Origin: Actinomycetota bacterium | GTDB taxonomy: Bacteria > Actinomycetota > Acidimicrobiia > IMCC26256 > PALSA-610 | Length of the DNA stretch: 64,000 nucleotides | Direction of reading: 5' to 3' | Assembly (NCBI GenBank): GCA_003134555.1 | Contig: PLBO01000131.1 | Coordinates: forward strand, 37,272-101,271 | Shown here: positions 571 through 35,146 of the stretch, piece after piece | Layout of the letters: the number at the start of each line of letters is the position of its first letter | Position numbering within the stretch: position 1 is the first letter of the stretch | The notes under the pieces: generated by a model | What the model was told of the DNA's origin: nothing | The model's input: only the letters and a program-made list of their open reading frames with translations | Databases searched by the model: none | Translations under genes and position numbers: made by a program

Positions 571-592
571 TTCCTGACACTGACGTCAGGAA
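571..592. promoter_or_regulatory. palindromic operator candidate, CTGAC-N6-GTCAG (extended arms TTCCTGAC/GTCAGGAA)
   Basis: TTCCTGACACTGACGTCAGGAA sits in the 53-bp gap between the divergent ACAD genes. It lies 16 nt from ATG 609 and 15 nt from GTG 555. TACCCT (-10-like) lies at 595-600. Confidence 0.6.
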
Positions 593-608
593 ACTACCCT
601 GCGCTCCA

Positions 609-1802
609 ATGCGCCTGCGCTACGCACCCGAGGACGAGGCCTTCCGCGCCGAGCTCGACCGCTGGCTCGACGAGCACCAGCCATCCGACGAGCGGGTGCA
701 CGAGCCCAAGCAGTCGAGCGCGCACATGCCGCAGTGGGCTCGCGACTGGCAACGCGCGCTGTTCGACGCGGGTTGGCTGGTGCCCGGTTGGTCGCCGGAG
801 CTCGGGGGCCGCAACGCGACGCCGACTCAACAGATGATCTATTTCGAGGAGATGAGCAGCCGCGAGATCCTGCGCAGCGCGAATCCGCAGGGCCTCGGGA
901 TCATCGCACCCTCGATCAACGACTACGGCACGCCCGAACAGAAGGAACGATTCCTCGTGCCGACGTTGCGCGCGGAGATCTCGTGGTGCCTCGGCATGAG
1001 TGAACCGGGCGCCGGGAGCGACCTCGCGAGTCTCAAGACGCGCGCGGAGTTGATCGGCGACGAGTTCGTGGTGAACGGGCAGAAGGTGTGGACGTCGGGC
1101 GCGCACCACGCCGACTGGTGCTTGTGCTTCGTGCGCACCGATCCGGCCGCGCCCAAGCACAAGGGCATCAGCGCGCTCATCATCGACACGACGGCGCCCG
1201 GAGTCGAACGCCGACCCTTCCCCGAGCTCTCCGACAACGAATTCTGCGACTTCAACGAAGTGTTCTTCACCGACGTGCGGGTGCCCAAGGAGAATCTGAT
1301 GGGCCCGCTCAACGGCGGCTGGCCGATCACGCAAGGCTCGCTCGCGCACGAACGCGCGATGTTGTGGATCACCTACGCGTACGACGTGCAACGCGCGGTC
1401 AAGGCGCTCGTCGAGCTCGGAAAGTCGGAAGGCCCGAACGGGAAACCGCTCGGAGAGGACGCGCGCTATCGCGACGCCGTCGCCGGGTTCTACGTCGACG
1501 CGCAAGCGCTCATGACGATGGGATACCGCGGTTTCTCCAAGTTCCTCAAGGGCAAGTCGGCGCCCGAGCACTCGTTGCTCAAGCTCTACGGCAGCGAGTC
1601 GTTGCAGAAGGCGCTGTTGTTCGGCATGGAGGCGCTCGGTATGGAGGAGCTCGATCTCGCCTGCTTCGGGCCGCAGATGTGGCGCGAAGGATCTTGGGCC
1701 ATTCAGTACCTACGCAGCTTCGGCGCGACCATCCCGGGTGGTACGAGCGAGATCCAACGCAACATCATCGCCGAGCGCGTCCTCGGACTTCCCCGCGCGT
1801 GA
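609..1802 (+). CDS. acyl-CoA dehydrogenase family protein
   Basis: In-frame ATG at 609 inside ORF 501..1802 (MRLRYAPEDEAFRAELDRWL...). ACAD hallmarks: WCLGMSEPGAGSDLASLKTRA, NGQKVWTSGAHHADW and a C-terminal IPGGTSEIQRNIIAERVLGLP. Divergent from the other ACAD. Confidence 0.88.
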   Translation: MRLRYAPEDEAFRAELDRWLDEHQPSDERVHEPKQSSAHMPQWARDWQRALFDAGWLVPGWSPELGGRNATPTQQMIYFEEMSSREILRSANPQGLGIIAPSINDYGTPEQKERFLVPTLRAEISWCLGMSEPGAGSDLASLKTRAELIGDEFVVNGQKVWTSGAHHADWCLCFVRTDPAAPKHKGISALIIDTTAPGVERRPFPELSDNEFCDFNEVFFTDVRVPKENLMGPLNGGWPITQGSLAHERAMLWITYAYDVQRAVKALVELGKSEGPNGKPLGEDARYRDAVAGFYVDAQALMTMGYRGFSKFLKGKSAPEHSLLKLYGSESLQKALLFGMEALGMEELDLACFGPQMWREGSWAIQYLRSFGATIPGGTSEIQRNIIAERVLGLPRA

Positions 1803-3442
1803 TGGACTTCACGCCGCGCGTCGTCGACGAGCAGGACGCGCGTCGCTATATGGCCGAAGGCTTCTGGGGCGACGACAGCCTCGGTGCGCTTCTCGCCGCC
1901 GGTTTGCGCGACGCCGCGTCGCACCCCTTCACCGTGCGTTCCGATCGCATGCCCTATCGCGGCACGCTCGGCGAAGTCGACGCGCTCGCGCGGCGCGTCG
2001 CCGCGGGTCTGCGCGGGCGCGGCATCGGGCCCGGCGACGCGGTCGCGTTCCAACTCCCGAACTGGCTCGAAGCGGCCGCGACCTTTTACGCGATCACGTA
2101 TCTCGGAGCGGTGGTGGTGCCGATCGTCCACTTCTACGGCCCGAAGGAGGTCGGCTACATCCTGCGCAAGACGCGCGTGAAGGCGCTCGTGACCGCCGAC
2201 CGCTTCGGCCATCAGGACTTCCTCGCCAATCTCGCAGGCATGCGCGACACACTTGTCGATCTCGAATGGGTCGCGATCGTCGGCGATCGAACGAGCGATG
2301 CGGCCGACCCGCGCGATCTCGCGTTCGCCGATCTCGTCGCCGACGACCCGATCGACGCGATTCCCGCCGTCGATCCGCGCGCACCCGCGCTCGTCGCCTA
2401 CACGTCGGGCACGACCTCGGATCCGAAAGGCGTCGTGCACTCGCATCGTACGATCAACGCCGAGATCCACCAGCTCGCCGCGATGCAGAACGATCGCGGC
2501 GGCCCGGCGATGATCACGGGCGCGCCGGTAGGTCACGGCATCGGCATGCTCGCCGCATTGCTCGTCCCCGTGTTCCGCCGAAGCGAGATCCATCTCATCG
2601 ACGTGTGGGATCCCGGTCGGGTGTTGCAGGCGATGCTCGACGAGGGCCTGTCGGCCGGCCAGGGCTCGACGTACTTCCTCACGAGCCTGCTCGATCATCC
2701 CGACTACGACGTCGAGCGTCACGTTCCGCTGATGCCCTTCGTCGGTCTCGGCGGCTCGGCGGTGCCGGCCGCGGTCGGCGAGCGCTGCGCGGCGCTCGGC
2801 ATCGAGATCGCGCGCAGCTTCGGATCGACCGAGCACCCGTCGATCACCGGGAGCAGCCCTGACGCGCCGCACGACAAGCGCGTGAACACCGACGGACGCC
2901 CGTTGCCGGGCGTCGAGATCCGGCTCGTCGACGACGACGGCAACGACGTCGAGGTCGGCACGCCCGGTGAGATCTGGAGCCGCGGGCCGGAGCTGTTCGT
3001 CGGCTACACGGATGCGGCCGCGACGGAGGCCGCGTTCAGCGCCGACGGTTGGTTCATGACCGGCGACATCGGTGTCGTCGACGACGATGGTTACCTCGCG
3101 ATCACGGATCGCAAGAAGGACATCATCATCCGCGGCGGCGAGAACGTGAGCGCGCAGGAGGTCGAGGAGCTTCTCGTGCGGATGCCCGACGTCGCCGAGG
3201 TCGCGGTCGTCGCCGCGCCCGATGCGCGTCTCGGCGAGGTCGCATGCGCGTTCTTCCGAATGCAGACCGGCCACCGCGCGCCGGAGCCGGCCGAAGTGCG
3301 GGCCTATCTCGAGCAGGCCGGGATCGCGCGCCAGAAGTGGCCCGAACACCTGCGCGCGGTCGACGAGTTCCCGCGCACCGCGAGTGGGAAGGTCCAGAAG
3401 TTCGTGTTGCGCCAGCGGCTGCGCGACGACGCGAGCTCGTGA
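1802..3442 (+). CDS. AMP-dependent acyl-CoA synthetase/ligase
   Basis: ATG at 1802 overlaps the upstream TGA (TGATG). AMP-binding motifs: LVAYTSGTTSDPKGVVHSH, WFMTGDIGVVDDDGYLAITDRKKDIIIRGGENV and a C-terminal PRTASGKVQKF. Confidence 0.9.
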   Translation: MDFTPRVVDEQDARRYMAEGFWGDDSLGALLAAGLRDAASHPFTVRSDRMPYRGTLGEVDALARRVAAGLRGRGIGPGDAVAFQLPNWLEAAATFYAITYLGAVVVPIVHFYGPKEVGYILRKTRVKALVTADRFGHQDFLANLAGMRDTLVDLEWVAIVGDRTSDAADPRDLAFADLVADDPIDAIPAVDPRAPALVAYTSGTTSDPKGVVHSHRTINAEIHQLAAMQNDRGGPAMITGAPVGHGIGMLAALLVPVFRRSEIHLIDVWDPGRVLQAMLDEGLSAGQGSTYFLTSLLDHPDYDVERHVPLMPFVGLGGSAVPAAVGERCAALGIEIARSFGSTEHPSITGSSPDAPHDKRVNTDGRPLPGVEIRLVDDDGNDVEVGTPGEIWSRGPELFVGYTDAAATEAAFSADGWFMTGDIGVVDDDGYLAITDRKKDIIIRGGENVSAQEVEELLVRMPDVAEVAVVAAPDARLGEVACAFFRMQTGHRAPEPAEVRAYLEQAGIARQKWPEHLRAVDEFPRTASGKVQKFVLRQRLRDDASS

Positions 3443-3443
3443 C

Positions 3444-4508
3444 GTGACCGGGCTGCTCGACGGCATGCGCGTCCTCGACGCGGGGATCTGGCGTCCGGTC
3501 CCGCACGCAACTCAGATGCTGGCTGATCTCGGCGCCCAAGTGTTGAAGATCGAGCCGCCCGGCGGTGACCCGATGCGGACCTTTCCGAACTTGTTCCGCG
3601 ACGTCGCGGGTCACAAGCGGAGCATCGAGCTCAATCTCCGCAGCGCCGAAGGTAAGGCGCGCGGACTCGAGCTGGTCGCCGAGGCCGACGTGTTCTGCGA
3701 AGGATGGCGGCCCGGAGTCGCGGCGCGTCTCGGCCTGAGCTACGACGACGTGCGGGCGCGCAACCCGTCGATCATCTACTGCTCGGTGTCGGGCTACGGC
3801 CAGACCGGGCCGAATGTCGAACGCCCGGGACACGACGTGAACTACCAGGCACTCGCGGGCGCACTCGCGCCGCGCGGCGGGGAGGAACCGGCGATCCCGC
3901 GTGTCCCCATCGCCGATCTCGCGGCGGGAACGATGGCCGCGTTGTGCATCTGCGCGGCGTGGGCGAAACGGATCCAGACCGGCGAGGGGGAGCGCATCGA
4001 CGTCGCGATGGCCGACGTGGTCGCGTCCTGGTCGGGAACGAGCTCCGGCAACGTGCTGCGCGGTCGGACTCAGCCGACGCGTGGGTCAGCCGGTTACGGC
4101 GTGTTCGCGTGCGCGGACGGCGGGTGGATCACGTTGGCGGTCATCTCCGAGGACCATTTCTGGCAGGCCGTGTGCGACGGGCTCTCGCTGCCGGACGAGC
4201 TCCGCGCGCTCGGCCATCTCGAACGTCTCGACCGTTTCGACGAGTGTCAGTCCGCGATCGCTGCGACCTGCGCGCGGCTCACGCGCGACGAGGCGCTGGA
4301 GCGGCTGACGGTGGCGGGCGCGCCCGTCGCGCCCCTCCTCGACCCGTCGGAGATGGCGGCGAGCGAACAGTTCCGTGTGCGCGAGGTCGTCGTCGACGCG
4401 GGTGACGGAACTGCGCGCCTCGGTTTCCCCGCTCGTCTGCAAGTGCATCCGCCGCGGTCGCCCGGACCGACCCCCGAAGTCGACCGCGACCGGGACGGAT
4501 GGGCGTGA
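3444..4508 (+). CDS. CoA transferase, family III (CaiB/BaiF-like)
   Basis: In-frame GTG at 3444, 2 nt after the upstream stop. N-terminus: LLDGMRVLDAGIWRPVPHATQMLADLGAQVLKIEPPGGDPMR. Also GYGQTGPNVERPGHDVNYQA, typical of family III CoA-transferases. Confidence 0.85.
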   Translation: MTGLLDGMRVLDAGIWRPVPHATQMLADLGAQVLKIEPPGGDPMRTFPNLFRDVAGHKRSIELNLRSAEGKARGLELVAEADVFCEGWRPGVAARLGLSYDDVRARNPSIIYCSVSGYGQTGPNVERPGHDVNYQALAGALAPRGGEEPAIPRVPIADLAAGTMAALCICAAWAKRIQTGEGERIDVAMADVVASWSGTSSGNVLRGRTQPTRGSAGYGVFACADGGWITLAVISEDHFWQAVCDGLSLPDELRALGHLERLDRFDECQSAIAATCARLTRDEALERLTVAGAPVAPLLDPSEMAASEQFRVREVVVDAGDGTARLGFPARLQVHPPRSPGPTPEVDRDRDGWA

Positions 4509-5153: not shown

Positions 5154-5744
5154 ATGGCTTCCGAGACACGTGAACGCTTGGTCGACGCCGCCTGGGAGTG
5201 CGTCCGCAAGGGCGGCGCGGTCGGGGCGACATCTCGAGCCATCACGGGCGCAGCCGAGGCCAACCTCGGCGCGATCACCTACTACTTCGGGTCGAAGGAC
5301 GCGCTCTTGGCCGAAGCGGTCGGCGGAGCCATCGAGGCGCTCGTCGGCCCCGCGCTCGAGGCCCTCCAAGACGAAGCTCTCGATCCCGTGAGCAGGGTTC
5401 TCGAGGCCATCGAGCAATTGCAACAGGCTTACGAGCAGTCAACTGATGACGCAGCCGTCTACCTGGAGGTATTGGTCCAGAGCCGGCGACAGCCAGAGTT
5501 GCAACGGCGCGTGAGTCAGGTATTCGCCGAGATCCGTTCAATCCTGGCGACGCAGATGGAGGAGTTGCAGGCGCGAGGTTTTCTTCCCGACTGGGTGCAG
5601 CCCGAGCCAATGGCGGGCCTGCTCCTTGCCGTCGCCCAAGGGGTGGTGTTGCAGACCGCGATCGACAGTGCCGGTCCGCCCCATACATCAATGGCGGACC
5701 AGTTCGCCCGACTGTTATTCGCGAGTAGCGCCCATGCGCAGTGA
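5154..5744 (+). CDS. TetR/AcrR family transcriptional regulator
   Basis: N-terminal HTH: RERLVDAAWECVRKGGAVGATSRAITGAAEANLGAITYYFGSKDALL. Size is 196 aa. Confidence 0.88.
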   Translation: MASETRERLVDAAWECVRKGGAVGATSRAITGAAEANLGAITYYFGSKDALLAEAVGGAIEALVGPALEALQDEALDPVSRVLEAIEQLQQAYEQSTDDAAVYLEVLVQSRRQPELQRRVSQVFAEIRSILATQMEELQARGFLPDWVQPEPMAGLLLAVAQGVVLQTAIDSAGPPHTSMADQFARLLFASSAHAQ

Positions 5745-5763: not shown

Positions 5764-7434
5764 TCAGGACGAGCGCAGGAGCTTGCCGGGCCGGGCCGCG
5801 AGCGCGGCGTCGACGGGAGTTCCGTCCTCGCGAATCACGGTGCCGTTGACCATGACGTGACTGATCCCCTCGGGGCGATCGGCAACGAGCCGTTCGCCGT
5901 CGGCGGGGAAGTCGCGGATCCGACGAAGTGGCCCGGGCGCGACCTTCTCGAAATCGAGCACGACGACGTCGGCGGCCTTGCCGACCTCGAGCGTGCCGCG
6001 ATCGTGCAGTCCGAACACCGACGCCGGTTCGCCGGTCAGTTTGTGGATCGCGTGTTCGAGCGGCATGACCTCTTTGTCGCGCACCCAGTTGCCGAGGAGG
6101 TCGGTCGCGAAGCACGCGTCGCAGAGTTGCGTGACGTGCGCACCGGAGTCGGCAAGGCCGAGGAGGACGGTGTCCTGGGGCAGTAGCCACGCGATCGCCT
6201 CGGGATCGTTGTTCGCGAGCACGCTCGTGAACCGGGTCTCGAGGTTCTCCTCGATCGACACGTCGAGCATCACGTCGAGCGGGGTGACGCCGCGCTCGGT
6301 CGCGATGTCCGTCACCTTGCGGCCGATGAGGTCGGGACGGGTCGGCGACTCGGCGACCGCGAGGGAATCGAAGTTCATCGGGAGCGCGCCCCGTGTGCCC
6401 TGCATCTCCTCCCACGCCCGGGCCCGCCAGGCCGGGTCGCGATACGCCTTGAGCCGCACGTCGTCGGGACGATCCATCAGCTCTTGGAACGCGGCGCGCA
6501 TGTTGAACGTGAACGGCTCGCGCAGGTTCATCTGGAACGTCAGCGGCCGGCACGACACCTGGGGCCACACTTCGATGCCCTGGGCGCGTGCCTCGGTGTT
6601 CGCCTTCATGATGCGCTCGTGCCACGGGTAGCCCTTCACGGTGAGCAGCGCGGTCCACGTGAGCGGACGTCGGGTCGCGCGCTGGAGCTCGTAGACGTCG
6701 GCGTGCGTCACCTTCTCGCCGGGGAGCAGCGCCGCGACACCCTTGTGCGAGTCGCGCAGCGGCTCGAGGAGCGAGCGGAGCTCCGCGAGGTCGGCGACAC
6801 GTGAGGGCACAGGTCGGCCGCGGTCGCCGCTGTGCGTCGGTGACGAAGAAGTGGCAAAGCCGGCTGCCCCCGCGGCCATCGCATCGGCGATGACCGCCTG
6901 CATCTTGCGGATCTCGTCGTCGGTCGCGGCGCGCTCGTAGCCCGCTTCCCCCATGACGAATATGCGCACCGCGGTGTGGCCGACGTAGCACGCGAAGTTG
7001 ATGAGCGTGCCGCGCGCCTCGATCGAATCGAGATACTGCGGGAAGGTCTCGAACTCGTCCCACGGAACGCCGGCGAAGAGCGTGTCGGGCGACATGTCCT
7101 CGACGTGCTGCAGCGTGCGGACGAGCAGTTCGCGGTGTTCAGGTCGGACGGGCGCGATCGAAAAGCCGCAGTTGCCCGCCACCACCGACGTCACACCGTG
7201 CCAGCAGCTCGGGGAGAGCGCCGGATCCCAGAAGACCTGAGCGTCGTAGTGCGTGTGGATGTCGACGAAGCCGGGTGTGACCATGTGACCGGACGCGTCG
7301 AGCTCGCGACGGCCGGAGAGGCCTTGCCCGATCTCGGAGATGACCCCGTCGGTGACGGCGACGTCGGCGGCCCGACCGGGCGCCCCGGTGCCGTCTACGA
7401 CCGTGCCACCCCGGACAACAACGTCTGCAGTCAT
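5764..7434 (-). CDS. N-acyl-D-amino-acid deacylase (D-aminoacylase) family amidohydrolase
   Basis: 556 aa. Starts MTADVVVRGGTVVDGTGAPGRAADVAVTDGVISEIG...VTPGFVDIHTHYD, the metal-dependent amidohydrolase signature. GAGGAG Shine-Dalgarno lies 4 nt upstream of the ATG. Confidence 0.82.
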   Translation of the reverse strand: MTADVVVRGGTVVDGTGAPGRAADVAVTDGVISEIGQGLSGRRELDASGHMVTPGFVDIHTHYDAQVFWDPALSPSCWHGVTSVVAGNCGFSIAPVRPEHRELLVRTLQHVEDMSPDTLFAGVPWDEFETFPQYLDSIEARGTLINFACYVGHTAVRIFVMGEAGYERAATDDEIRKMQAVIADAMAAGAAGFATSSSPTHSGDRGRPVPSRVADLAELRSLLEPLRDSHKGVAALLPGEKVTHADVYELQRATRRPLTWTALLTVKGYPWHERIMKANTEARAQGIEVWPQVSCRPLTFQMNLREPFTFNMRAAFQELMDRPDDVRLKAYRDPAWRARAWEEMQGTRGALPMNFDSLAVAESPTRPDLIGRKVTDIATERGVTPLDVMLDVSIEENLETRFTSVLANNDPEAIAWLLPQDTVLLGLADSGAHVTQLCDACFATDLLGNWVRDKEVMPLEHAIHKLTGEPASVFGLHDRGTLEVGKAADVVVLDFEKVAPGPLRRIRDFPADGERLVADRPEGISHVMVNGTVIREDGTPVDAALAARPGKLLRSS

Positions 7435-7449
7435 GACTCTCCTCGGAGA

Positions 7450-7465
7450 CTGACGCCCACGTCAG
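7450..7465. promoter_or_regulatory. palindromic operator candidate, CTGAC-N6-GTCAG
   Basis: CTGACGCCCACGTCAG, 15 nt upstream of the deacylase ATG (7434, minus strand) and immediately before its GAGGAG Shine-Dalgarno. Confidence 0.6.
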
Positions 7466-7627: not shown

Positions 7628-7643
7628 TTGACGTGCGTGTCAG
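7628..7643. promoter_or_regulatory. palindromic operator candidate, variant TTGAC-N6-GTCAG
   Basis: TTGACGTGCGTGTCAG, 20 nt upstream of the ADH ATG at 7664. One mismatch to the consensus. Its spacer resembles the 31733 copy (ATGCGT versus GTGCGT). Confidence 0.5.
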
Positions 7644-7663
7644 GTTCGGGCGACCCTTCTGGC

Positions 7664-8713
7664 ATGACGCACGTGCCCGAGACCATGCCGGCCGCAGTGT
7701 TCATGGGACTGCGGGACGTGGCGATCGAGGACCGGCCTACCCCGGAGCCCGGCCCGGGCGAGCTGCTCCTCGAGGTCAGTCACTGCGGGATCTGCGGCTC
7801 CGACCTGCATTTCCTCCTCGAATGGGGTGGCCGATCCGGGGTCATCGAAGGCCACGAGTATTCGGGCACCGTCGCGGCGCTCGGCTCCGGCGTCACGGAT
7901 TGGGCAGTCGGCGATCGCGTGATCGGCGGCCCGTCGCCCAAGTGCGGACGCTGCGAATACTGCCTCGCGCACCGGACCTCGCTCTGCGTCGAGCGGGGCG
8001 GGGTCGGAGGCGACGACGGCACCTGGCAGGGGGCATTCGCCGGCTACAAGACGGTGCGCGCGGCCGAGGCGCTGCGCGTTCCCGACGGCCTGTCGCTCAA
8101 GCACGCCGCGCTCACCGAGCCGCTGGCGGTCGCGCTGCACGGCATCACGCGCGCGGGAGGCGCCCGGCCCGGCACGCGCTGGCTCGTGACGGGCGGCGGT
8201 CCGATCGGCTTTTTGTCGGTGGCGGCCTTGAAGGCGCTCGGCATCGACGACGTCGTGGTCAGCGAGCCCAAGGAGAGCCGGCGGGCTTTGTGCGAGAAAC
8301 TCGGTGCTCGCGCCGTCGACCCCGCGGATCTCGTCACGCCCGCGATGCCGTACGACTTGGTCGACGAGCCGTTCGACGTCGCGCTGGAGTGCTCCGGTAA
8401 CGGCCGCGCCCAGGAGTCGGCGCTCGCGCAGCTGAAGCGCGGGGGCACGCTCGTGCTCGTCGGCGCGGGCATGGCCCGTCCGAAGTTCGATCCGAATCGC
8501 ATCCTGTTGAACGAGCTCGTCATCACGGGCGCGTTCGTCTACGACCACGACGGCTTCCCGCGCGCGCTCGAACTTCTCGCGTCGGGCCGACTGGCGAACG
8601 ACCTGCTCGTGGAGCAGGAGGACTACCCGCTCAACCGGCTCCTCGACGCGGCCGTCGGCTTGCACGAGGGCGACCTCGCGGCCAAGGCCATGATCGTGCC
8701 CCGAGTCTCGTAA
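7664..8713 (+). CDS. zinc-dependent alcohol/threonine dehydrogenase-like (MDR family) oxidoreductase
   Basis: In-frame ATG at 7664 in ORF 7628..8713. Motifs: EVSHCGICGSDLHF, GHEYSGTV, a second Zn site (CGRCEYCLAHRTSLC) and Rossmann GGGPIGFL. Confidence 0.85.
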   Translation: MTHVPETMPAAVFMGLRDVAIEDRPTPEPGPGELLLEVSHCGICGSDLHFLLEWGGRSGVIEGHEYSGTVAALGSGVTDWAVGDRVIGGPSPKCGRCEYCLAHRTSLCVERGGVGGDDGTWQGAFAGYKTVRAAEALRVPDGLSLKHAALTEPLAVALHGITRAGGARPGTRWLVTGGGPIGFLSVAALKALGIDDVVVSEPKESRRALCEKLGARAVDPADLVTPAMPYDLVDEPFDVALECSGNGRAQESALAQLKRGGTLVLVGAGMARPKFDPNRILLNELVITGAFVYDHDGFPRALELLASGRLANDLLVEQEDYPLNRLLDAAVGLHEGDLAAKAMIVPRVS

Positions 8714-8724
8714 GGAGCGCACCG

Positions 8725-9195
8725 ATGCCCACGACCGGACCCGCGTTCACGACGCGCAAGCCCCGCTTCAATCACGTCGCGATGAGCCTCACGCCGGAGA
8801 TGCTTGACGAGGAGCACCGCAAGCTGCGTGCCGACTTCTTCGGCGACGTGTTCGGCTTCGTCGACCTTCCGATGATGACGATCGACCGTAAACGTCAGGT
8901 CTTCCAGGTCCACAACATCGAACAGTTCGTGTTCCTCATCGCCGACGACGACGGCTCGGCGATGGAGTGCCCCCGGCTCGACCATTTCGGGCTGTCGGTG
9001 GGGGCGGAGTCGGAGCTCGACGAGATCCTGTCGCGCGCGAAGGCGTGGCAGGCGCGCGACGATCGGGTCGACATCATCGACAAGCAGGTCGACGATCACG
9101 GCATGCTCGCGATCACCAGCATCTACGTGCGCTATCTGCTGCCGATGATGTGCGAGATCCAATGGTGGGACTATCACGAGCCCCGTCCCGAATGA
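8725..9195 (+). CDS. VOC (glyoxalase/dioxygenase-like) family protein, tentative
   Basis: 156 aa. AAGGAG Shine-Dalgarno 7 nt upstream. FNHVAMSL... and LDHFGLSV pseudo-repeat pattern typical of the VOC fold. Same operon as the ADH. Confidence 0.5.
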   Translation: MPTTGPAFTTRKPRFNHVAMSLTPEMLDEEHRKLRADFFGDVFGFVDLPMMTIDRKRQVFQVHNIEQFVFLIADDDGSAMECPRLDHFGLSVGAESELDEILSRAKAWQARDDRVDIIDKQVDDHGMLAITSIYVRYLLPMMCEIQWWDYHEPRPE

Positions 9196-9231
9196 ATCCG
9201 AACCGATTCGAGTGAACCCGGAGGACACTGA

Positions 9232-23494: not shown

Positions 23495-23510
23495 CTGACA
23501 CGAGCGTCAG
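23495..23510. promoter_or_regulatory. palindromic operator candidate, CTGAC-N6-GTCAG
   Basis: (C)CTGACACGAGCGTCAG(G), 37 nt upstream of the SBP1 ATG. Overlaps a -35-like hexamer. Confidence 0.6.
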
Positions 23511-23523
23511 GCGTGCTTATGAT
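23495..23523 (+). promoter_or_regulatory. sigma-70-type promoter candidate for the binding-protein operon
   Basis: CTGACA (23495-23500), a 17-nt spacer, then TATGAT (23518-23523). This leaves about 20 nt of leader carrying GGGGGAGG before ATG 23548. Confidence 0.5.
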
Positions 23524-24927: not shown

Positions 24928-24961
24928 TTGACGGAGGCTCCCGCTGAGAGACGTCGCCCGC

Positions 24962-24987
24962 GACACCCGCCGTATCCGGCGGGTGTC
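24962..24987 (+). other. GC-rich hairpin between or over the start of the two binding-protein genes
   Basis: GACACCCGCC, a 6-nt loop, then GGCGGGTGTC: a perfect 10-bp stem. The right arm contains GTG 24983. No U-tract follows. Confidence 0.6.
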
Positions 24988-26339: not shown

Positions 26340-29300
26340 TCAGGCCTTGGCGACCTCTGCCTTCGCATTCGAGCGTTGGATCGCCCGCTCGTCGGTGCCG
26401 AGGTACGACGCGACCACGCGCGGATCCGAGCGCACCGCATCGGGGGCGCCGTGCGCGATCACCGCACCTGCCTCCATGCAGTAGATGCGGTCGCTGATCG
26501 ACATGATGAGCGGGAGGTCGTGCTCCACGACGACGAGCGTTGCGTCGAGCTCGCGCTGGACGCGCTTGATCAGCGGTCCGAACGCCTCGGCCTCGCGCTG
26601 CGCGACACCGGCGGTCGGCTCGTCGAGGCAGACGACGCGGGGCGCGACCGCGAGCACCGACGCGAGCTCGACGATGCGACGCGTTCCCGTCGACAGCTCG
26701 ACGATGAAGCGGTCGGCGTAGCGCCCGAGGCCGAGGAAGTCGATCAGCTCCGCGGCTTCGGCTCGCTTGGCGCGCTCCTTGGAGATCGACGGGGGATAGA
26801 AGAGCAGCGATCCCCAGAACGACGTCGCGCCGCGGGCCTCGAGCGCGAGCTGCACTGTCTCGCGCACGGTGAGCTCGGGGAACAACGTCGCGGCCTGGAA
26901 GGTGCGACCCAGGCCCGCACGTGCGCGCAGGTGCGGCGGTAGGCGCGACACGTCGTCGCCGAGGAGCTCGACCTTGCCCCGGCTGGGGACGTAGCCGCCG
27001 ATCGCGTTCAGGAGCGTCGACTTGCCGGCGCCGTTGGTTCCGATGAGTCCGATGACCTCGCCGGGCATCGCGTGGAACTCGATGTTGTCGACTGCGACGA
27101 GTCCGCCGAAGTCGACGGCCAACGCACTGGTCGCGATCGCGCTGCCGTCGGCGTTCGTTGCCATCGTCACGCCGGCGCGGCGCGCGAGCGAGACCGGCGG
27201 TGTCGTGACCGTCTTCGTCGGCTGCTCGGGCAGTCGTTTCTCGAGCCAGCGCAGGATCGTGCCGCGCAAGGAGTAGCCGAGTTGCGTGAAACCGCCGGGT
27301 AGGTAGAGCAGCACGATCAGCAGGCCGATGCTCGACGTGAGAAGGCCGACGGTTTGGTTCTTCGGCCAGAACAACGGGAGGCCGACGACCCACAGCGCGC
27401 CGGTGACTGCGCCCGCGAGGCTGCCGAGTCCGCCGATCACGGCCATCGCGACGATCGACAGCGAGTCCTGGACGCGAAAGAACGCGTCGTGGTAACCGAA
27501 CGTCTGGACCGTGCCCGCCAGCACGGCGCCCCCCAGTCCCGCGAGGAAGCCGCCCAACGCGAACGCCGTGAGCTTCGCGCGTGTCGGCGACACGGTGAAC
27601 GCTGCCGCGCCCGCTTCGTTCTCGCGGACGCCGACGATCGCGCGGCCGATGCCGGTGCGGCGCAGGTGCCCGACGAGGAGGAGGACGATGACGAGGGTGC
27701 CGAGCGCGAAGTAGTAGTACGCGCGGTTGTGCACCGTCAGGTCGAGGGGGCCCAGCTTGCCCCGGTCGACCTCGCCGATGCTCGAGCCCTCCGTGCCGAC
27801 GAGGATCGGGCGGGGAAAGATGTAGACCTCCGCCGCGATGGCGAAGGCCATGGTGCTGATCGCGAGCAACAGGCCCCGCACGCGCAGCGCGCCGGTGCCG
27901 ACCGCGGCGGCGACCATGCTGCTGACGGCCGCGCCCAGGAGCACCGCGAGCACGAACGGCACCCGGTGCATGCTGCCGGTGCGGTCGATCGCCGCGGGGA
28001 AGACGACCGCGCCGGCGACGATGCACAGCGCAGCGGCGATCGCCGCGATGACGCGGACACGAGTATCGCGACGGCGCGCGAGAGCGACTCCGATCGCGAT
28101 GGCCGCGACCGCGAGGAGGGCGAGCCCCCCGGCCATCGGAAACGGGCGAACCGCGCCCCTCGCGAGCCGGTTCGATCGCCAGCCGATGTCGAGCGTGACG
28201 CCGCGGATGAGCGCCGCGGCGCTCAGCGCCCCGAGCCCCGCGAACGCGGCCTGACCGAGCGACAGCTGCCCGGCCCAGCCGGTCAGCACCGTGACCGATA
28301 CCGCGATGATCGCAGTCGCCAGGACCAGTGCGTAGGCCTGTTGGTGCGACGACTGGGTGATCAGGAACGGCACGATGATCGCACCCGCGAGCGCGATCCA
28401 CGCGGTGAGATTCGGTATGCGCCGCACCCACCACACCTCCCGCAGGCGCTCGGGCACCGGGGGCACGCGCGGCGCGAACGCGAAGCTGTCGCCGAGGGTT
28501 CCGGCGTCGGCGCGGCTGATACGGGCGACGAGAACGAGCACCACCAGGAAGAGCACGAACTCGACCAGGCCCGGCGAGTTCGGGAAGTTGTACGTGAGTA
28601 CCTGGTAGAGGATCCCGATCCCGATCGCGCCGGCGGCGGTGCGCGGGAACGACGTCATGCCACCGATGAGCGCGGCGGTCAGGCCGAGCAGCAGCGTCTG
28701 GGGACCGACCTGGACGAGGTCGGTCGTGCCTCCCTGCGTCGCGTAGAGCACGAGCGTGATGCCCGAGAGGAGACCGCCGATCGTCCAGATCGCGGTCGAC
28801 ATCAGCTTCGGGCTGATCCCGGTGAGGCGCGCGAGATCGGGGTTCGTCGCCGACGCGCGGACGGCATCGCCGAACACTGTGCGACCGAGGAGCCACCAGA
28901 GCGCGAGCGTGACGATCGGCACGACGATGAGCGCGAGCACTTGCGGTCCGGTGACGACGACGTTCGTGACCTGCAGATGGAAGCCACCGAGGTGCAGGTG
29001 CCCGAGTGAGGAGATCTTCCAGTTCGAGTTCATCGGGCTCGGAAAGACCGTCTGGAACTTGCCGGTGCGGTAGTCGGGCAGCGTGCGCACGAGCGCCTGC
29101 ACCAACTCGGCCACGCCGATCGTCGCGACGAGCACGATGACGCGCGGGGCCTTGGCGAGCCGGCGGATCACGATCATCTCGATCAGCGCCCCGCCCGCGG
29201 TCGTGGTGAGGAGCGCGAGCGCGAGAGCCGGCCAGTAGGGGAAGTGCGAGCGCACGACCATGATTGCCAGCAGCGCGGCCGCGGGGACGCCGATGTCGGC

Positions 29301-29441
29301 GACGGCGAAGTTGATGACGCGGGTCGAGCGGTAGATCAAGACGATGCCCATCGCCAGGACCGACACGATGAGGCCCTGGACGAGGCCGATGAACAGGAGG
29401 TTCGACGTCGCGATGTGGGGCTGGAACAGCGACGCCACCAT
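26340..29441 (-). CDS. fused branched-chain-amino-acid-type ABC importer: LivH-like permease + LivM-like permease + LivG-like ATPase
   Basis: Single 1033-aa ORF. The LivH-like N-terminus is LFIGLVQGLIVSVLAMGIVLIYRSTRVINFAVADIG. The LivM-like middle is VLTGWAGQLSLGQAAFAGLGA. The C-terminal ATPase has Walker A GLIGTNGAGKSTLL, an LSTGTRR signature and Walker B VVCLDEPTAG. Confidence 0.85.
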   Translation of the reverse strand: MVASLFQPHIATSNLLFIGLVQGLIVSVLAMGIVLIYRSTRVINFAVADIGVPAAALLAIMVVRSHFPYWPALALALLTTTAGGALIEMIVIRRLAKAPRVIVLVATIGVAELVQALVRTLPDYRTGKFQTVFPSPMNSNWKISSLGHLHLGGFHLQVTNVVVTGPQVLALIVVPIVTLALWWLLGRTVFGDAVRASATNPDLARLTGISPKLMSTAIWTIGGLLSGITLVLYATQGGTTDLVQVGPQTLLLGLTAALIGGMTSFPRTAAGAIGIGILYQVLTYNFPNSPGLVEFVLFLVVLVLVARISRADAGTLGDSFAFAPRVPPVPERLREVWWVRRIPNLTAWIALAGAIIVPFLITQSSHQQAYALVLATAIIAVSVTVLTGWAGQLSLGQAAFAGLGALSAAALIRGVTLDIGWRSNRLARGAVRPFPMAGGLALLAVAAIAIGVALARRRDTRVRVIAAIAAALCIVAGAVVFPAAIDRTGSMHRVPFVLAVLLGAAVSSMVAAAVGTGALRVRGLLLAISTMAFAIAAEVYIFPRPILVGTEGSSIGEVDRGKLGPLDLTVHNRAYYYFALGTLVIVLLLVGHLRRTGIGRAIVGVRENEAGAAAFTVSPTRAKLTAFALGGFLAGLGGAVLAGTVQTFGYHDAFFRVQDSLSIVAMAVIGGLGSLAGAVTGALWVVGLPLFWPKNQTVGLLTSSIGLLIVLLYLPGGFTQLGYSLRGTILRWLEKRLPEQPTKTVTTPPVSLARRAGVTMATNADGSAIATSALAVDFGGLVAVDNIEFHAMPGEVIGLIGTNGAGKSTLLNAIGGYVPSRGKVELLGDDVSRLPPHLRARAGLGRTFQAATLFPELTVRETVQLALEARGATSFWGSLLFYPPSISKERAKRAEAAELIDFLGLGRYADRFIVELSTGTRRIVELASVLAVAPRVVCLDEPTAGVAQREAEAFGPLIKRVQRELDATLVVVEHDLPLIMSISDRIYCMEAGAVIAHGAPDAVRSDPRVVASYLGTDERAIQRSNAKAEVAKA

Positions 29442-31660
29442 CAGCCGCCTTCGGTGCCGAAGAAGACGGCGCGGGCGAGGTCGTCGCGGTCGAGCAGCTC
29501 CTGCGCGGAGCCCTCGAACTTCACCTCACCCTTCTCGAGGAAGATCGCGCGGTCGGAGATCGCGAGCGCGACGTTGAGCGACTGCTCGACGATGAGCATC
29601 GTCTGGCCGCGCGCTCGGAGCCGGTCGACGAGCTCGAGCATGCGCTGGACGACCACGGGCGCAAGGCCGAGTGAGAGCTCGTCGATCAAGAGGATCTCGG
29701 GCTCCTGCATGAGCACGCGCGCCAAGGCGAGCATCTGCTGCTGACCGCCGGAGAGGCTGCGGGCCAACTGTTTCGGCCGTTCGGCCAGCTCGGGGAAGAG
29801 CTCGAGGACGTCGGAGATGTGAGCGTCGATCTCGGCGCTGGTCCCGCCCCGCAACCGCGCCGCGATACCGAGGTTCTGCATGACGGTCAGGCTCGGGAAC
29901 ACACCCTTGCCGCCCGGCAGCTGCACGATCCCGTGTCGGACGCGCTGTTCCGGGGCCACGAACGTGATGTTGCGCCCGTTGAGTCGTGTGACCCCGCGCT
30001 CGGGCACCTCGAGACCGCTGATGACGCGCAGGATCGTCGACTTGCCGGCCCCGTTGGTGCCGAGCAGCGCGACGCACTCGCCGCGGTGGATCTCGAAGTT
30101 GACGTCGAAGAGCACCTGCACGGGCCCGTAGGAGAAGTCGGTGTTGACCATCTGCAACACCGGAGTGTCGACGCCGTCGACGGCGCGCTTGCGTTGCTCC
30201 TCTTGTTCCTCGAGTAACTCCTCGACGACGAGGGAGAGATCGTGGCGTATGAACCGCGCCCCGTTCATCAACAGCAGGCTGCCGATGATGCTGGTGGGAA
30301 CGAGCAGGACGAAGACGGTTGTGCGCACTCCGAACGAGTTCGTGAAGAAGTCGGCGAGGATGCTGCCGCCGAACCCGCCGATGAGCACCACGTACATGAC
30401 ACCCATGGCCACGCCGAGCCCGCGCAAGCGGTACGGGCACACGGCCTGCAGCACCGGCGTGACCATCGCGAACGCGCACGCCGTGAGCACCGATTGCGGG
30501 ATCCCGAAGATCACGAACCACACGGTGCTGTGCGTCGAGACCTGCAAGGGTGTGAACAGCGCCGACGGCATGATCAGAGCGCCGACCAGCACGAGGGCCT
30601 TCGCCGGGTCCTTGCGGTACGTTCGGTCGAAGTAGCGGCCGACGGGATACAGGAATGGCACCGCGGTCCACCCGGAGAGGCTGAGGATGAAGCCGCGCTG
30701 CAGGATGTTGGTGACGTGCAGCGTGTCGTTGAGGTACAGCACCTGCAGCGCGCCGAGCGCGAACACGCCGAACCCGAGCGCGGCGAAGGCCGCGATCGAC
30801 GTGCGGATCGTCGCGACCTTCTTCAACCGCGCGAACGCCGCCTCCATCGACGGCTGCGCGGGGTTCTCGTCCTCGATGACCTCACCGAGCACGTCCTGCT
30901 TCTCGTACTGCCCGCGCGGCGGCTCGCGCAGGAAGAACACCGCGATGGCCATGAGCGCGCCCGGTATCCCGAGCACGAAGAACGCCCAGCGCCAACCCTC
31001 GACCCCGCCGGCCCAGGTCGCGATCGCGCCGACCACGACGGGGCTGAGGTTCCCCAGCACCTGCTGGCCGATGTTCATCGCGGCCGACATCCGGGCCCGG
31101 ATACCGATCGGGTAGTTATCGGCGAGTAGCGGCTGGTGCACGGCGAGGTTGTTCGCCTTGGCCACGCCGGTGAGGCACAGCGCCCAGAACAAGACGAACG
31201 CGCTGCCCGCGAGTCCGGACAAGAAGGTGAAGAGCGCCGCTAACAACGTGGCGAAGCCGACGATCGGGATGCGACGCGTGCGATCCGCGAGCCAACCCAT
31301 CGGGATCGCGCCGAGCGCGTAGAAGAGGCTCGACGCCGAGGCGATGAACACGACTGCGCCGCTGCTGATGTGGAAGGTCTGGCGCAGCTCGGGCTCGATC
31401 GTCTGCACCGCGTTCAGGGTCAGCTGGTCGAGCGACACCAACAGCCCGAGCACGACGAACATGCTCACGCCGCCTTTGGCGAACGCGCCCCGGAGACTCA
31501 CCGGCTCGGAGTTGACCCCCGGGAGGAGGTCGTCGGGGAAGATCACCTGCTCTTTGGCCCGGGCCTGCGCTTCTTGGCGGGCCGCCTCTTCGTCGAGAAC
31601 TGCCGCCGCGAGCGACGCGGCGCTGCCCTCGGGTTCGCCAGGTGTCTGCAGATCGGTCAC
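29441..31660 (-). CDS. MFS-type membrane domain fused to LivF-like ABC ATPase
   Basis: 739-aa ORF. The N-terminal ~490 aa have about 12 TM spans with MFS motif-A-like GWLADRTRRIP and WRWAFFVLGIPGALMAIAVFFLREP. The C-terminal ~240 aa have Walker A LLGTNGAGKSTIL, signature LSGGQQQ and Walker B ILLIDELS. The stop overlaps the downstream ATG (TGATG). Confidence 0.82.
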   Translation of the reverse strand: MTDLQTPGEPEGSAASLAAAVLDEEAARQEAQARAKEQVIFPDDLLPGVNSEPVSLRGAFAKGGVSMFVVLGLLVSLDQLTLNAVQTIEPELRQTFHISSGAVVFIASASSLFYALGAIPMGWLADRTRRIPIVGFATLLAALFTFLSGLAGSAFVLFWALCLTGVAKANNLAVHQPLLADNYPIGIRARMSAAMNIGQQVLGNLSPVVVGAIATWAGGVEGWRWAFFVLGIPGALMAIAVFFLREPPRGQYEKQDVLGEVIEDENPAQPSMEAAFARLKKVATIRTSIAAFAALGFGVFALGALQVLYLNDTLHVTNILQRGFILSLSGWTAVPFLYPVGRYFDRTYRKDPAKALVLVGALIMPSALFTPLQVSTHSTVWFVIFGIPQSVLTACAFAMVTPVLQAVCPYRLRGLGVAMGVMYVVLIGGFGGSILADFFTNSFGVRTTVFVLLVPTSIIGSLLLMNGARFIRHDLSLVVEELLEEQEEQRKRAVDGVDTPVLQMVNTDFSYGPVQVLFDVNFEIHRGECVALLGTNGAGKSTILRVISGLEVPERGVTRLNGRNITFVAPEQRVRHGIVQLPGGKGVFPSLTVMQNLGIAARLRGGTSAEIDAHISDVLELFPELAERPKQLARSLSGGQQQMLALARVLMQEPEILLIDELSLGLAPVVVQRMLELVDRLRARGQTMLIVEQSLNVALAISDRAIFLEKGEVKFEGSAQELLDRDDLARAVFFGTEGG

Positions 31661-31732
31661 GGTCTCTCCATCGCCGGCAGCCCGTTGCCGGCGGCCCGCG
31701 ATGGCGGCGGGTGCTCGGATCGTACGCGCTAG

Positions 31733-31748
31733 CTGACATGCGTGTCAG
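31733..31748. promoter_or_regulatory. palindromic operator candidate, CTGAC-N6-GTCAG
   Basis: CTGACATGCGTGTCAG sits in the 127-bp divergent region. It lies 72 nt from the MFS-LivF ATG (31660, minus strand) and 39 nt from the OMT ATG (31788). Confidence 0.6.
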
Positions 31749-33470: not shown

Positions 33471-34127
33471 TCACATCCCGCGCAGCATCTTGTAGATCGG
33501 CGCCATCTTCTCTCGCGTCGAGTCGGGAAGTGGCTGGATCTCGCCCAACTGCCGGGCGCCCCAGATGATCTCCGCGGTGAGCTCGACGAGGTTTGCGATC
33601 TTCAGTGCATCCTTCGGCGTCTTGCCGACGGTCAGCAATCCGTGGTTCGCCATGAGCACGGCCGCGCGGTCGCCGACCCATTTCGACACCTCGTCGGCCA
33701 GCTCCTGAGATCCGGTGAACTGGTAGTTCGCGACGGGCACGTCGCCGCCGACGAACACCTCGACTTCTTCGATCGCGCAGGGAATCGGTTGGTGGGTCAG
33801 CGCGAACATCGTGCAGAACTTGGCGTGACAGTGGATGACGGCGTGGATGTCGTCGTACGCGGCGAGGCACGCGAGGTGGAGCGCCTTCTCGGTCGTCGGA
33901 TGGCGAGTGCCCTCGAGCACGTTGGCGTCGAGATCGCACACGACGAGATCGTCGAGCGTCATCGTCTCGTACGCGAGCGATGACGGCGTGAGCACGACGT
34001 TGCCGTCGGGCAGGCGCGCGGAGAAGTTTCCCGCGGTCCCGTGCACGAGGTTCGTGCGCAGACTCTCCTGGGCGACCCAGAGCAGCTGCTGTTTGATCTC
34101 CTCGCTCGTTCCCTTCGGACCGGCCAT
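33471..34127 (-). CDS. class II aldolase/adducin family protein
   Basis: In-frame ATG at 34127 overlaps the upstream stop (TGATG). Motifs: VHGTAGNFSARL, VLTPSSLAYETMTLDDLVVCDLD and metal-binding IHCHAKF...MANHGLLTVG. Confidence 0.85.
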   Translation of the reverse strand: MAGPKGTSEEIKQQLLWVAQESLRTNLVHGTAGNFSARLPDGNVVLTPSSLAYETMTLDDLVVCDLDANVLEGTRHPTTEKALHLACLAAYDDIHAVIHCHAKFCTMFALTHQPIPCAIEEVEVFVGGDVPVANYQFTGSQELADEVSKWVGDRAAVLMANHGLLTVGKTPKDALKIANLVELTAEIIWGARQLGEIQPLPDSTREKMAPIYKMLRGM

Positions 34128-35110
34128 CAGCGAAGTACCTCCGGATTCACACAGTTGACCGGCTTCTCGCCGCGTAGCACCCGGACTACGTCGTCGGCGA
34201 TCAACCGGGAGTGGTTCGCCTCGGTGTCGTAGGTCGCGCCGCCGATGTGCGGGGTGAGGACGACGTTCGACATCGAGCAGAGCGGGTGGTCGATCGGCAG
34301 GTTCTCGCCCGTGAAGTGGTCGAGACCCGCGCCGGCGAGGTGTCCCGACTGGAGGGCGCTCACCAACGCATCGGTGTCGTGCAGCATTGCGCGCGCGGTG
34401 TTGATGTAGATCGCGCCCGGTTTCATGGCCGCGAATTGTGCGGCACCGACGAGACCTTCGGTCTCCGGGGTGACGACCGCGTGTACCGAGACGACGTCGC
34501 ACTCCTGCAACATCGCTTCGAGGTCGTCATGGTGGGTCGCGTCGGGGTTGTACGGGTCGTACGACAGCACGTGCATGCCGAGGCCGGCGAAGCGCCATGC
34601 CGCGGCGCGCCCGACTGCACCGAGACCGACGACCCCCACGGTCCGTCCGGCAAGCTGCCACGCCCGGTAGCGCTGGTAGGGAATCGTGCCGCCCGAGTAG
34701 ACCTCGCCGGCGCGTACGTCGCGATCGGCGGGCACGATCCAGCGGTTGACCGCGAACATCATCGCCATCGCGAGCTCGGCGACCGCGTCGGCGTTCCGGC
34801 CGGGCGCGCGGAGCACAGGGATCCCGGCGGCAGTGGCGGCCGCGATGTCGACGTTGTTGGGGTCACCGCGGCACGACCCGATCACCTTCAGCGGGAGATC
34901 GAAAACGGGCCCTTTGACGGAGTCGGACTCGACGATCAGCACGTCGGCCCCTTCGGCGGCCAGTCGGGCTGCGAGCTTCTCGCCGTTGTAGAGGCGCAGG
35001 GGGACTTGCTCGATCCAGGGGTCGTACACGACCTCGGCGACCGACCGGAGGGTCTCCATTCCGGCTCCTCGAAACGGCGCGGTCACGAGGGCGACGGGGC
35101 GAGCGGTCAC
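34127..35110 (-). CDS. D-isomer-specific 2-hydroxyacid dehydrogenase (PGDH-like), NAD-binding
   Basis: In-frame GTG at 35110 with GAGGA 7 nt upstream. Rossmann motif: GRTVGVVGLGAVGRAAAWRFAGLGMHVLSYDP. Catalytic-region motifs: INTARAMLHDTDAL and LDHF...NVVLTPHIGGAT. Confidence 0.85.
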   Translation of the reverse strand: MTARPVALVTAPFRGAGMETLRSVAEVVYDPWIEQVPLRLYNGEKLAARLAAEGADVLIVESDSVKGPVFDLPLKVIGSCRGDPNNVDIAAATAAGIPVLRAPGRNADAVAELAMAMMFAVNRWIVPADRDVRAGEVYSGGTIPYQRYRAWQLAGRTVGVVGLGAVGRAAAWRFAGLGMHVLSYDPYNPDATHHDDLEAMLQECDVVSVHAVVTPETEGLVGAAQFAAMKPGAIYINTARAMLHDTDALVSALQSGHLAGAGLDHFTGENLPIDHPLCSMSNVVLTPHIGGATYDTEANHSRLIADDVVRVLRGEKPVNCVNPEVLR

Positions 35111-35130
35111 CTCGCCATCCTCGCGCGCGG

Positions 35131-35146
35131 CTGACGTGGGCGTCAG
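35131..35146. promoter_or_regulatory. palindromic operator candidate, CTGAC-N6-GTCAG
   Basis: CTGACGTGGGCGTCAG, 20 nt upstream of the dehydrogenase GTG (35110, minus strand). It is the exact reverse complement of the 7450 copy, spacer included. Confidence 0.6.

Follow-up and report, generated by a model that had tools for sequence, protein, structure and literature searches.

The operator of Escherichia coli RutR, a protein of the TetR family, is the 16-bp palindrome TTGACCAnnTGGTCAA (PMC2475637), and for McbR, a TetR-type repressor of Corynebacterium glutamicum, the operator is given as TAGAC-N6-GTCTA where it is cited in PMC2723105. Here we analyse a 64,000-nt stretch of contig PLBO01000131.1 from an uncultured soil bacterium of the class Acidimicrobiia (67% G+C; the whole of this stretch is termed the window), in which a palindrome of similar build, CTGAC-N6-GTCAG (CTGACNNNNNNGTCAG), recurs in front of catabolic and uptake genes. 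Of the two described operators that of RutR is the closer analogue. RutR acts as a TetR dimer on a site with the same outer geometry, (T/C)TGAC-N6-GTCA(A/G), and TTGAC or GTCAA arms are carried by one of the window sites, at position 7628, and by many sites in relatives. Moreover, RutR is found among the structural neighbours of the candidate TetR that is described below. The two systems differ in the inner bases of the operator, which are CCAnnTGG in RutR and ACGnnCGT (RYS|SRY) here, and in the regulon, which in the case of RutR serves pyrimidine catabolism. RutR binds many sites inside genes, whereas the sites in question here are strictly intergenic, and the candidate TetR scores only ~31 bits on the NCBIfam model of RutR, whose cut-off is 368, so that the two proteins are not orthologous. 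McbR is likewise an actinobacterial TetR-type repressor with an nnGAC-N6-GTCnn palindrome and a multi-operon metabolic regulon, but its operator differs in the outer bases and its regulon concerns sulphur and methionine metabolism; the likeness is one of build, not of shown orthology.

The window contains exactly five perfect copies of the palindrome, at positions 574, 7450, 23495, 31733 and 35131, the same five that a preliminary description of this DNA had listed. Only 0.12 copies are expected by chance, as estimated from 100 dinucleotide shuffles of the window in which the maximum was 2, and the earlier estimate that ten fixed bases should occur well under once is therefore borne out. When one mismatch is allowed, two extra sites appear, one at 7628 (TTGACGTGCGTGTCAG), which is intergenic, and the other at 4074 (CCGACGCGTGGGTCAG), which lies within a CoA-transferase gene. 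The latter had been pointed out before; it is at chance level, since it scores below 10 bits on the motif matrix introduced below, and we rejected it as an operator. Two look-alikes with wrong spacing do not fit the motif and were rejected as well: one at 26326 (N8), at convergent gene ends, was found where it had been reported, and the other (N4, in coding sequence) is real but starts at 24424 rather than at 24425. On a gene map that combines database gene calls with Pfam-supported open reading frames (ORFs), and that leaves only 7.4% of the window between genes, all six remaining sites are wholly intergenic (chance ~2e-7), in agreement with the previous observation that no perfect copy lies in coding sequence. 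The window is contained in a 165-kb ENA metagenome contig (ERZ19973526 c_000000007372), and its organism was also met in a wood metagenome. On this contig the picture is the same: the window together with 9.4 kb of upstream flank holds 8 sites in 73 kb, all of them intergenic and upstream of genes.

To define the motif, base preferences were counted over 35 non-redundant sites with perfect arms, pooled from the window and related loci. There is a purine at position 6 in 69/70 cases, a pyrimidine at position 7 in 65/70, and mostly G at position 8. Since positions 6 and 7 are constrained, the spacer is not the free N6 it had been taken for, and the motif is a continuous 16-bp palindrome with a degenerate centre, CTGACRYS|SRYGTCAG (CTGACACG|CGTGTCAG). 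Outside these 16 bp nothing is conserved in the pooled sites beyond a weak preference at the positions directly adjoining (+/-1), and position 1 also accepts T, A or G, which yields TTGAC, ATGAC and GTGAC variants. A 16-mer form of the operator is CTGACACGCGTGTCAG, and CTCACACGCGTGTGAG is an example of an arm mutant. Scanning the window and the related loci (1.58 Mb) with a motif matrix at a threshold of at least 16 bits recovers 78 matches, compared to 1 in a shuffle. The matrix was built by hand from the same data that were scanned, and it is thus the perfect-match statistics that constitute the independent evidence. Literature text searches with the motif in several notations gave no match, and a text search that combined the palindrome core with TetR brought up nothing but primers and unrelated regulators.

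The palindrome is retained at orthologous operons, which were traced by genome and metagenome scans for orthologs of LivHMG and of the amidohydrolase. The window encodes a LivHMG fusion protein whose closest relatives, at 66-96% identity, are found in metagenome-assembled genomes (MAGs) labelled Acidimicrobiia or Actinomycetota. In a footprint alignment of the region upstream of the MFS-LivF/LivHMG operon (alignment A1; 12 genomes covering this same range of LivHMG identity), invariance is confined to CTGACACG, GTCAG, a -10 element TAnnnT located 8 nt downstream, and the Shine-Dalgarno sequence with the start codon. The three central bases of the operator and all the flanks vary. Orthologous sites are also present in front of the binding-protein gene (L006:16661, L007:13224, L008:22824, L016:17736 and L032:16867, given as related locus and position) and of the 2-hydroxyacid dehydrogenase gene (L003:573, L007:2022 and L017:6035). 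Finally, amidohydrolase orthologs from metagenomic lineages, at 57-88% identity, are preceded by sites in L039, L040, L050, L062 and L072, and further ones in L088, L091, L093, L097, L099, L108, L109 and L118. Across relatives at 57-96% protein identity, the arms at orthologous operons are invariant, and the centre and the flanks drift. The preliminary description had proposed an operator of a dimeric helix-turn-helix (HTH) regulator that defines a regulon and whose regulator could not be assigned in the window. Conservation at orthologous operons and restriction to intergenic DNA both support this proposal, and judged by these sequence comparisons the palindrome is a real, conserved operator, predicted to mark a multi-operon catabolic and uptake regulon in Acidimicrobiia.

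The genes that would belong to this regulon can be named from the position of each site, using start-codon distances taken from database gene calls and from ORF and Pfam evidence. The operator at 574..589 (CTGACACTGACGTCAG; 22 bits on the matrix) is situated in the 53-nt gap between two divergent acyl-CoA dehydrogenase genes, 18 and 19 nt from their starts at 555 (-) and 609 (+). Its putative targets are the acyl-CoA dehydrogenase gene at 1..555 (-), the N-terminal part of which lies in the window, and an operon at 609..4508 (+) for an acyl-CoA dehydrogenase, an AMP-binding acyl-CoA synthetase and a family III CoA-transferase. The operator at 7450..7465 (CTGACGCCCACGTCAG) is found 15 nt upstream of ATG 7434 of an Amidohydro_3 (D-aminoacylase-like) gene (5764..7434, -), a conserved member of the regulon. 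The variant TTGACGTGCGTGTCAG at 7628..7643 (21.3 bits) precedes by 20 nt ATG 7664 of a putative target operon (7664..10209, +), which encodes a Zn alcohol dehydrogenase, a protein of 156 amino acids (aa) and a luciferase-like monooxygenase. Further downstream, the operator CTGACACGAGCGTCAG (23495..23510) lies upstream of solute-binding protein 1, 37 nt from ATG 23548, and has two Peripla_BP_6 solute-binding protein genes as target (23548..26329, +). The operator CTGACATGCGTGTCAG (31733..31748) lies on the promoter of the MFS-LivF/LivHMG operon (26340..31660, -), which encodes a Liv-type ABC importer as an MFS+LivF and a LivH+LivM+LivG fusion; the site is 72 nt from GTG 31660 and 39 nt from ATG 31788. 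The last operator in the window, CTGACGTGGGCGTCAG (35131..35146), lies 20 nt upstream of GTG 35110 of the target operon for D-2-hydroxyacid dehydrogenase and class II aldolase (33471..35110, -). The distances of 15 nt at 7450 and of 20 nt at 35131, as well as the TTGAC variant 20 nt upstream of the alcohol dehydrogenase operon, match the earlier account. In the upstream flank, site L124:2771 (CTGACGTGGGCGTCAG), 6.6 kb upstream of the window, lies ~18-20 nt before the gene of a fused 719-aa acyl-CoA dehydrogenase, and site L124:5412 (TTGACGCCGGCGTCAG) lies before a MaoC / ChsH2-like / Ltp2-like thiolase operon.

Some features of these sites and targets are worth recording in their own right. 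The copies at 7450 and 35131 are exact reverse complements of each other, as had been noticed, and L124:2771 is a third identical copy, so that three sites on one contig agree even in the variable centre (CTGACGTGGGCGTCAG). They precede unrelated genes, for an amidohydrolase, a 2-hydroxyacid dehydrogenase and a fused acyl-CoA dehydrogenase, and their identity could reflect a preferred affinity or recent copying. In the transporter operon, the fusion of an MFS permease with a LivF-type ATPase (739 aa) and that of LivH, LivM and LivG (1033 aa) are unusual, and this gene fusion is kept, at 46-96% identity, in MAGs of Acidimicrobiia. The genes of binding protein 2 and LivHMG are convergent, and a GC-rich inverted repeat (26326-26343, CTGACGGCCGGCGGTCAG) sits exactly between their stop codons; it may form a bidirectional terminator-like hairpin without a T-tract.

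The sites stand in a fixed relation to predicted promoters. The offset of nANNNT hexamers after the site peaks at 7 nt (n=20) and 8 nt (n=33), compared to ~4 per offset elsewhere, and for the strict form TANNNT the peaks at 7 nt (n=15) and 8 nt (n=16) compare to less than 1 per offset elsewhere. The -35 box, 17-18 bp from the -10 element, falls on the distal arm (CTGACA, TTGACA or GTGACA), and at such predicted promoters the operator would span approximately -36 to -21, with its centre near -28.5, over the -35 box and the spacer. The hexamer TATGAT at 23518..23523 (+), which is kept in relatives, follows the operator at 23495 by 7 nt, and TACGAT at 31719..31724 (-) follows that at 31733 by 8 nt. 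Putative -10-like hexamers are TACCCT at 595..600 (+), 5 nt after the operator at 574 and 8 nt before ATG 609, and GACCCT at 7652..7657 (+), 8 nt after the operator at 7628 and 6 nt before ATG 7664. A further one, GAGGAT at 35117..35122 (-), 8 nt after the operator at 35131 and 6 nt before GTG 35110, is identical in L003 and L007 and reads GAGACT in L017. Because there is no room for a leader at 609, 7664 and 35110, leaderless transcripts are predicted there; several targets, including these three, are probably leaderless, which would probably explain why their operators are spaced 15-20 nt before the start codon. In a few relatives, the site is found directly after the -10 element (TAGGAT or TATATT, 1-2 nt, site; L120:10869, L129:10773 and L133:2397), where it would cover the transcription start. 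Both positions appear typical of repression rather than of activation.

Two analogues had been put forward for the palindrome. McbR, as a TetR-type protein, is apt, but CRP is the wrong one, because the sites are centred near -28.5 and not at -41.5 or -61.5. CRP and GlxR sites (TGTGA-N6-TCACA) look similar, as 5-N6-5 palindromes to which a dimeric HTH protein binds, but the sites studied here lie over the -35 box and spacer or over the transcription start, and what looks like their spacer is itself part of the palindrome. We therefore rejected a CRP/FNR activator site, the arms of which also differ, and neither the window nor the annotated TetR loci showed a CRP-family gene. A site for a MerR-type activator was rejected too: the spacing is 17-18 bp instead of 19-20 bp, the dyad centre lies ~2 bp past the -35 hexamer, and there is no MerR gene beside the sites.

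More generally, promoters of this lineage seem to depend on a -10 element nANNNT at a distance of 6-8 nt from the start codon, as in the O-methyltransferase gene (TAGCGT, 7 nt, ATG 31788; window 31775-31790) and in all TetR genes in L119-L133. This pattern points to leaderless mRNAs as a very common feature of these Acidimicrobiia. A simple sigma-70 consensus scan of 7400-7700 found no match; such a scan is too strict here, because the promoters are dominated by their -10 element (nANNNT).

A candidate for the cognate regulator emerges from the related loci. In L062, which has 4 sites, the second gene of the acyl-CoA synthetase operon behind site L062:3561 encodes a TetR protein (PF00440 with a weak EthR_C match). 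Its ortholog in L012, an Acidimicrobiia MAG (phmmer 2e-64), adjoins a Liv-type transporter; here the palindrome precedes the ATG of the TetR gene by 20 nt, and the -10 element TAGTGT lies in between. An operator on the own promoter is present in 9 further independent orthologs (L119, L120, L121, L122, L127, L129, L130, L131/132 and L133), where the layout is GTGACAYGnnYGTCRR, 7-8 nt, TAGCCT or TACCCT, 6-7 nt and ATG, and where the operator occupies the gap common to a divergent MaoC-SDR operon. Thus, 10/10 orthologs from independent genomes carry the operator on their own promoter, and an eleventh lies in an operon behind a site, which makes this TetR clade the candidate cognate, autoregulated repressor. 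The fixed position of the operator strengthens this signature, as does synteny with members of the regulon: the TetR gene is syntenic with MaoC-SDR and, in most loci, also with a Liv-type transporter operon that carries sites. Further sites in the TetR loci lie before Peripla_BP_6/Liv-type transporter genes, a UGSC / 2-hydroxyacid dehydrogenase cluster, AMP-binding genes, a P450 gene and others. In the first seven of the loci with called genes (L119-L122, L127, L129 and L130), 24/24 matches of at least 13 bits are intergenic. Exemplars of the clade are L012:6821-7474(-), L062:5377-6033(+), P0118 and P0060. At E <=1e-20 there are ~4,500 homologues of this TetR, none of them functionally named, and those with a taxon label are nearly all proteins of Acidimicrobiia MAGs. 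The ~190-aa genes divergent from amidohydrolase genes were likewise suspected to encode regulators, a suspicion that was dropped: those in L062 and L111 encode MaoC-type hydratases, and that in L058 belongs to no recognisable family.

Every member of the candidate clade contains PF00440 together with a weak EthR_C match, and the invariant recognition helix reads TSHGTFYLYF. The AlphaFold model of the candidate TetR (pLDDT, the predicted local distance difference test, of 90) consists of 8 helices, and its top neighbours in the PDB are all of the TetR family, namely Bacillus subtilis FadR with stearoyl-CoA (3WHC), a Clostridium perfringens fatty-acid regulator, Mycobacterium tuberculosis FasR (6O6P), EthR and RutR; 6AZH is also among the best structural matches. 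Together with the content of the regulon, these neighbours make an acyl-CoA effector plausible. The regulons of FadR (YsiA of Bacillus), FasR (M. tuberculosis) and KstR/KstR2 resemble the one predicted here in that they include acyl-CoA dehydrogenases, acyl-CoA synthetases, hydratases and thiolase-like genes, and these systems share the logic proposed here, in which the repressor is autoregulated and its operator lies at the promoter. They differ in protein sequence, identity being only ~20-25%, and in the regulon, which here additionally comprises a Liv-type importer, amidohydrolases and a 2-hydroxyacid dehydrogenase. The operator sequences of FadR, FasR and KstR differ from the palindrome of this study. 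The candidate clade matches no NCBIfam equivalog, and in addition to RutR it stays far below the cut-offs for FadR (45-57 bits against 200), FasR (34-46 against 330) and KstR (18-25 against 280). The best PDB sequence match has an E-value of ~2e-8, and there is no close solved relative.

Taken together, we consider it probable that the palindromes are the operators of a homodimeric TetR repressor, from an uncharacterised clade that is widespread in Acidimicrobiia, which controls a CoA-dependent catabolic and uptake regulon. Judging from the loci that could be read, the cognate TetR is likely encoded elsewhere in the source genome, outside the window and its readable flank. Most promoters have the operator 7-8 bp upstream of the -10 element, where the bound repressor would exclude RNA polymerase, and a few have it just after the -10 element, where it would cover the transcription start. 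At several targets, and at the TetR gene itself, the layout would be leaderless: operator, 7-8 nt, -10 element, 6-8 nt and start codon. The regulon would be induced when a metabolite of the pathway, an acyl-CoA being the most plausible one, releases the repressor. On the source contig the regulon would comprise the acyl-CoA dehydrogenases, the acyl-CoA synthetase / CoA-transferase operon, the MaoC / ChsH2-like / Ltp2-like thiolase operon, the amidohydrolase, the alcohol dehydrogenase / monooxygenase operon, the Liv-type ABC importer with its binding proteins, and the 2-hydroxyacid dehydrogenase / aldolase operon. Physical binding by the TetR protein, and repression rather than activation, are what we infer from the position and conservation of the sites.

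Several points weigh against this reading. Binding of TetR to the operator, expression and transcription starts are all predicted from sequence alone. The window and the 9.4 kb upstream flank contain no ortholog of the candidate TetR, three orthologs drawn from NCBI proved to belong to other MAGs, and the presence of this TetR in the source genome is assumed. The operators on the promoter of the TetR gene begin with G instead of C, and their second arm is weaker. The likeness to acyl-CoA sensors is modest (template modelling score, TM, ~0.7; 22% identity), and TetR folds resemble one another. On the minus side of site 574 and at 7450 there is no convincing -10 element at the canonical offset, and the -10-like GAGAGT at 7450 would set the transcription start inside the gene. 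Finally, the motif matrix shares its data with the scan, being hand-built from them, and orthologous sites are not independent observations.

A more far-reaching version of the TetR reading is possible, though doubtful: the clade might act throughout the Acidimicrobiia as the master regulator of CoA-dependent catabolism and uptake, a functional counterpart to FadR or KstR, and its operator might double as two back-to-back -35 boxes. If this were true, one 16-bp element would both build and gate compact bidirectional leaderless promoters, such as that in the 53-nt gap 555/609.

Among the rival explanations, the one that survives best is that the palindrome is the operator of another dimeric regulator, be it a TetR paralogue or a GntR, MarR, IclR or CRP-type protein, and that the TetR clade is merely a member of the regulon. 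Consistent with it, the cognate regulator is not in the window, the link between TetR and the motif is purely comparative, and the operators on the TetR gene's own promoter differ slightly from the rest at position 1. We nevertheless regard this explanation as unlikely. No other transcription-factor family recurs beside the sites (GerE and LysR were seen once each), and sites at a fixed position on the promoters of all ten orthologs, together with an eleventh gene in an operon that a site precedes, are what one classically expects of a cognate repressor acting on its own gene. Moreover, 16-bp nnGAC-N6-GTCnn palindromes are documented for TetR proteins, and a centre near -28.5 misfits class I or class II activation by CRP/FNR.

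It is quite improbable that no dedicated regulator exists and that the palindrome is simply a promoter element, which provides a near-consensus -35 box (cTGACA) on both strands for divergent promoters. The CTGACA or TTGACA arm does lie 17-18 bp upstream of -10 hexamers, and a palindrome gives a -35 box in both directions, as would suit site 574 between its divergent genes. However, the second arm, GTCAG, is invariant at unidirectional promoters as well, where it falls into the spacer, which sigma-70-type factors do not read in a base-specific manner. In L120:10869, L129:10773 and L133:2397 the palindrome directly follows the -10 element and cannot serve as a -35 box, and housekeeping promoters elsewhere in the window do without it.

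Near the sites there is no classical regulator other than the TetR of the window itself (5154..5744, +; BetI-type C-terminal domain), whose gene is arranged tail-to-tail with the amidohydrolase gene and which could be thought to bind the palindromes and to control the neighbouring catabolic genes. Besides it, the window has one MazE/AbrB-like ORF. We consider a role of this local TetR highly improbable. No homologue of it is found nearby in relatives that keep the amidohydrolase site (L039, at 84% identity, L040 and others); it is unrelated to the motif-carrying clade, with no phmmer match at E <0.01 and a different recognition helix; and the 33-nt gap upstream of it lacks the motif and carries a different palindrome, CATACGTATG. 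The doubt that had been voiced about this protein, on the ground that its own promoter is free of the motif, was thus justified.

The last rival, that the palindrome is a dispersed repeat of the REP (repetitive extragenic palindromic) or MITE (miniature inverted-repeat transposable element) type or a 5'-leader RNA hairpin with a 5-bp stem and a 6-nt loop, has in its favour that the copies are short, GC-rich and intergenic, three of them with the same centre, but it is hardly credible, given that similarity ends at 16 bp, that copies are held at orthologous promoters across 57-96% protein identity with arms kept in sequence and without covariation, that many lie upstream of the -10 element and would not be transcribed, and that they form no arrays and never occur at gene ends. 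The phylogenetic footprinting that had been suggested for orthologous operons, with its invariant arms in the 12-genome alignment, likewise gives a REP-like element no backing.

Other observations concern the regulators and the remaining genes of the window. The perfect palindrome CATACGTATG is located at 5118-5127, in the gap between a divergent gene for a 199-aa protein (4521-5120, -) and the TetR gene at 5154 (+), and is likely the operator of this local TetR, to judge from its position. The intergenic region between the amidohydrolase and alcohol dehydrogenase genes contains, at 7499-7612, a 45-bp tandem repeat of 2.2-2.5 copies (87-92% matches), each unit of which begins with a palindrome-like box, CCAAC(A/T)GTT(T)GG (7500, 7545 and 7590). 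Allowing one mismatch and counting both strands, the box pattern has 8 matches in the window versus 1.1 expected, the six strong ones at 7499-7612, and the boxes may form an additional array of operators, served by a different regulator that could be the local TetR. The small MazE/AbrB-type ORF (33107-33439) combines a SpoVT-AbrB DNA-binding domain with a double zinc ribbon and adjoins the aldolase / 2-hydroxyacid dehydrogenase operon. The region 10025-21873 encodes an AftD-like GT-C arabinofuranosyltransferase of 1477 aa with F5/8 type C / CBM domains and a PMT_2 glycosyltransferase, which hint at a Mycobacteriales-like arabinan or a related envelope glycan outside that order. Finally, a 962-aa secreted-type protein with 12 RCC1 repeats and Calx-beta domains is encoded at 48806-51694, and a 1104-aa fusion of a TylF-type O-methyltransferase, a GT2 glycosyltransferase and a CmcI/rhamnosyl O-methyltransferase at 59955-63269.

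Acidimicrobiia are abundant in soil, wood and water and are almost entirely uncultured, and we know of no transcription-factor regulon that has been described in this class. The system outlined here is a standard repressor-operator arrangement, which works like those of RutR and McbR and of FadR, FasR and KstR without being an ortholog of any, and it changes no general principle. The motif together with its candidate TetR would give this uncultured class a first model of a regulon and of its promoters. It gives a handle on an unusual mix of co-regulated genes, for steroid- or branched-lipid-like beta-oxidation, amidohydrolases, a fused Liv-type importer and a hydroxyacid dehydrogenase/aldolase pair, as well as on the substrate that may link them and on how promoters are built, with a -10 element nANNNT and frequent leaderless starts. 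The motif could be used to annotate membership in the regulon in thousands of MAGs.

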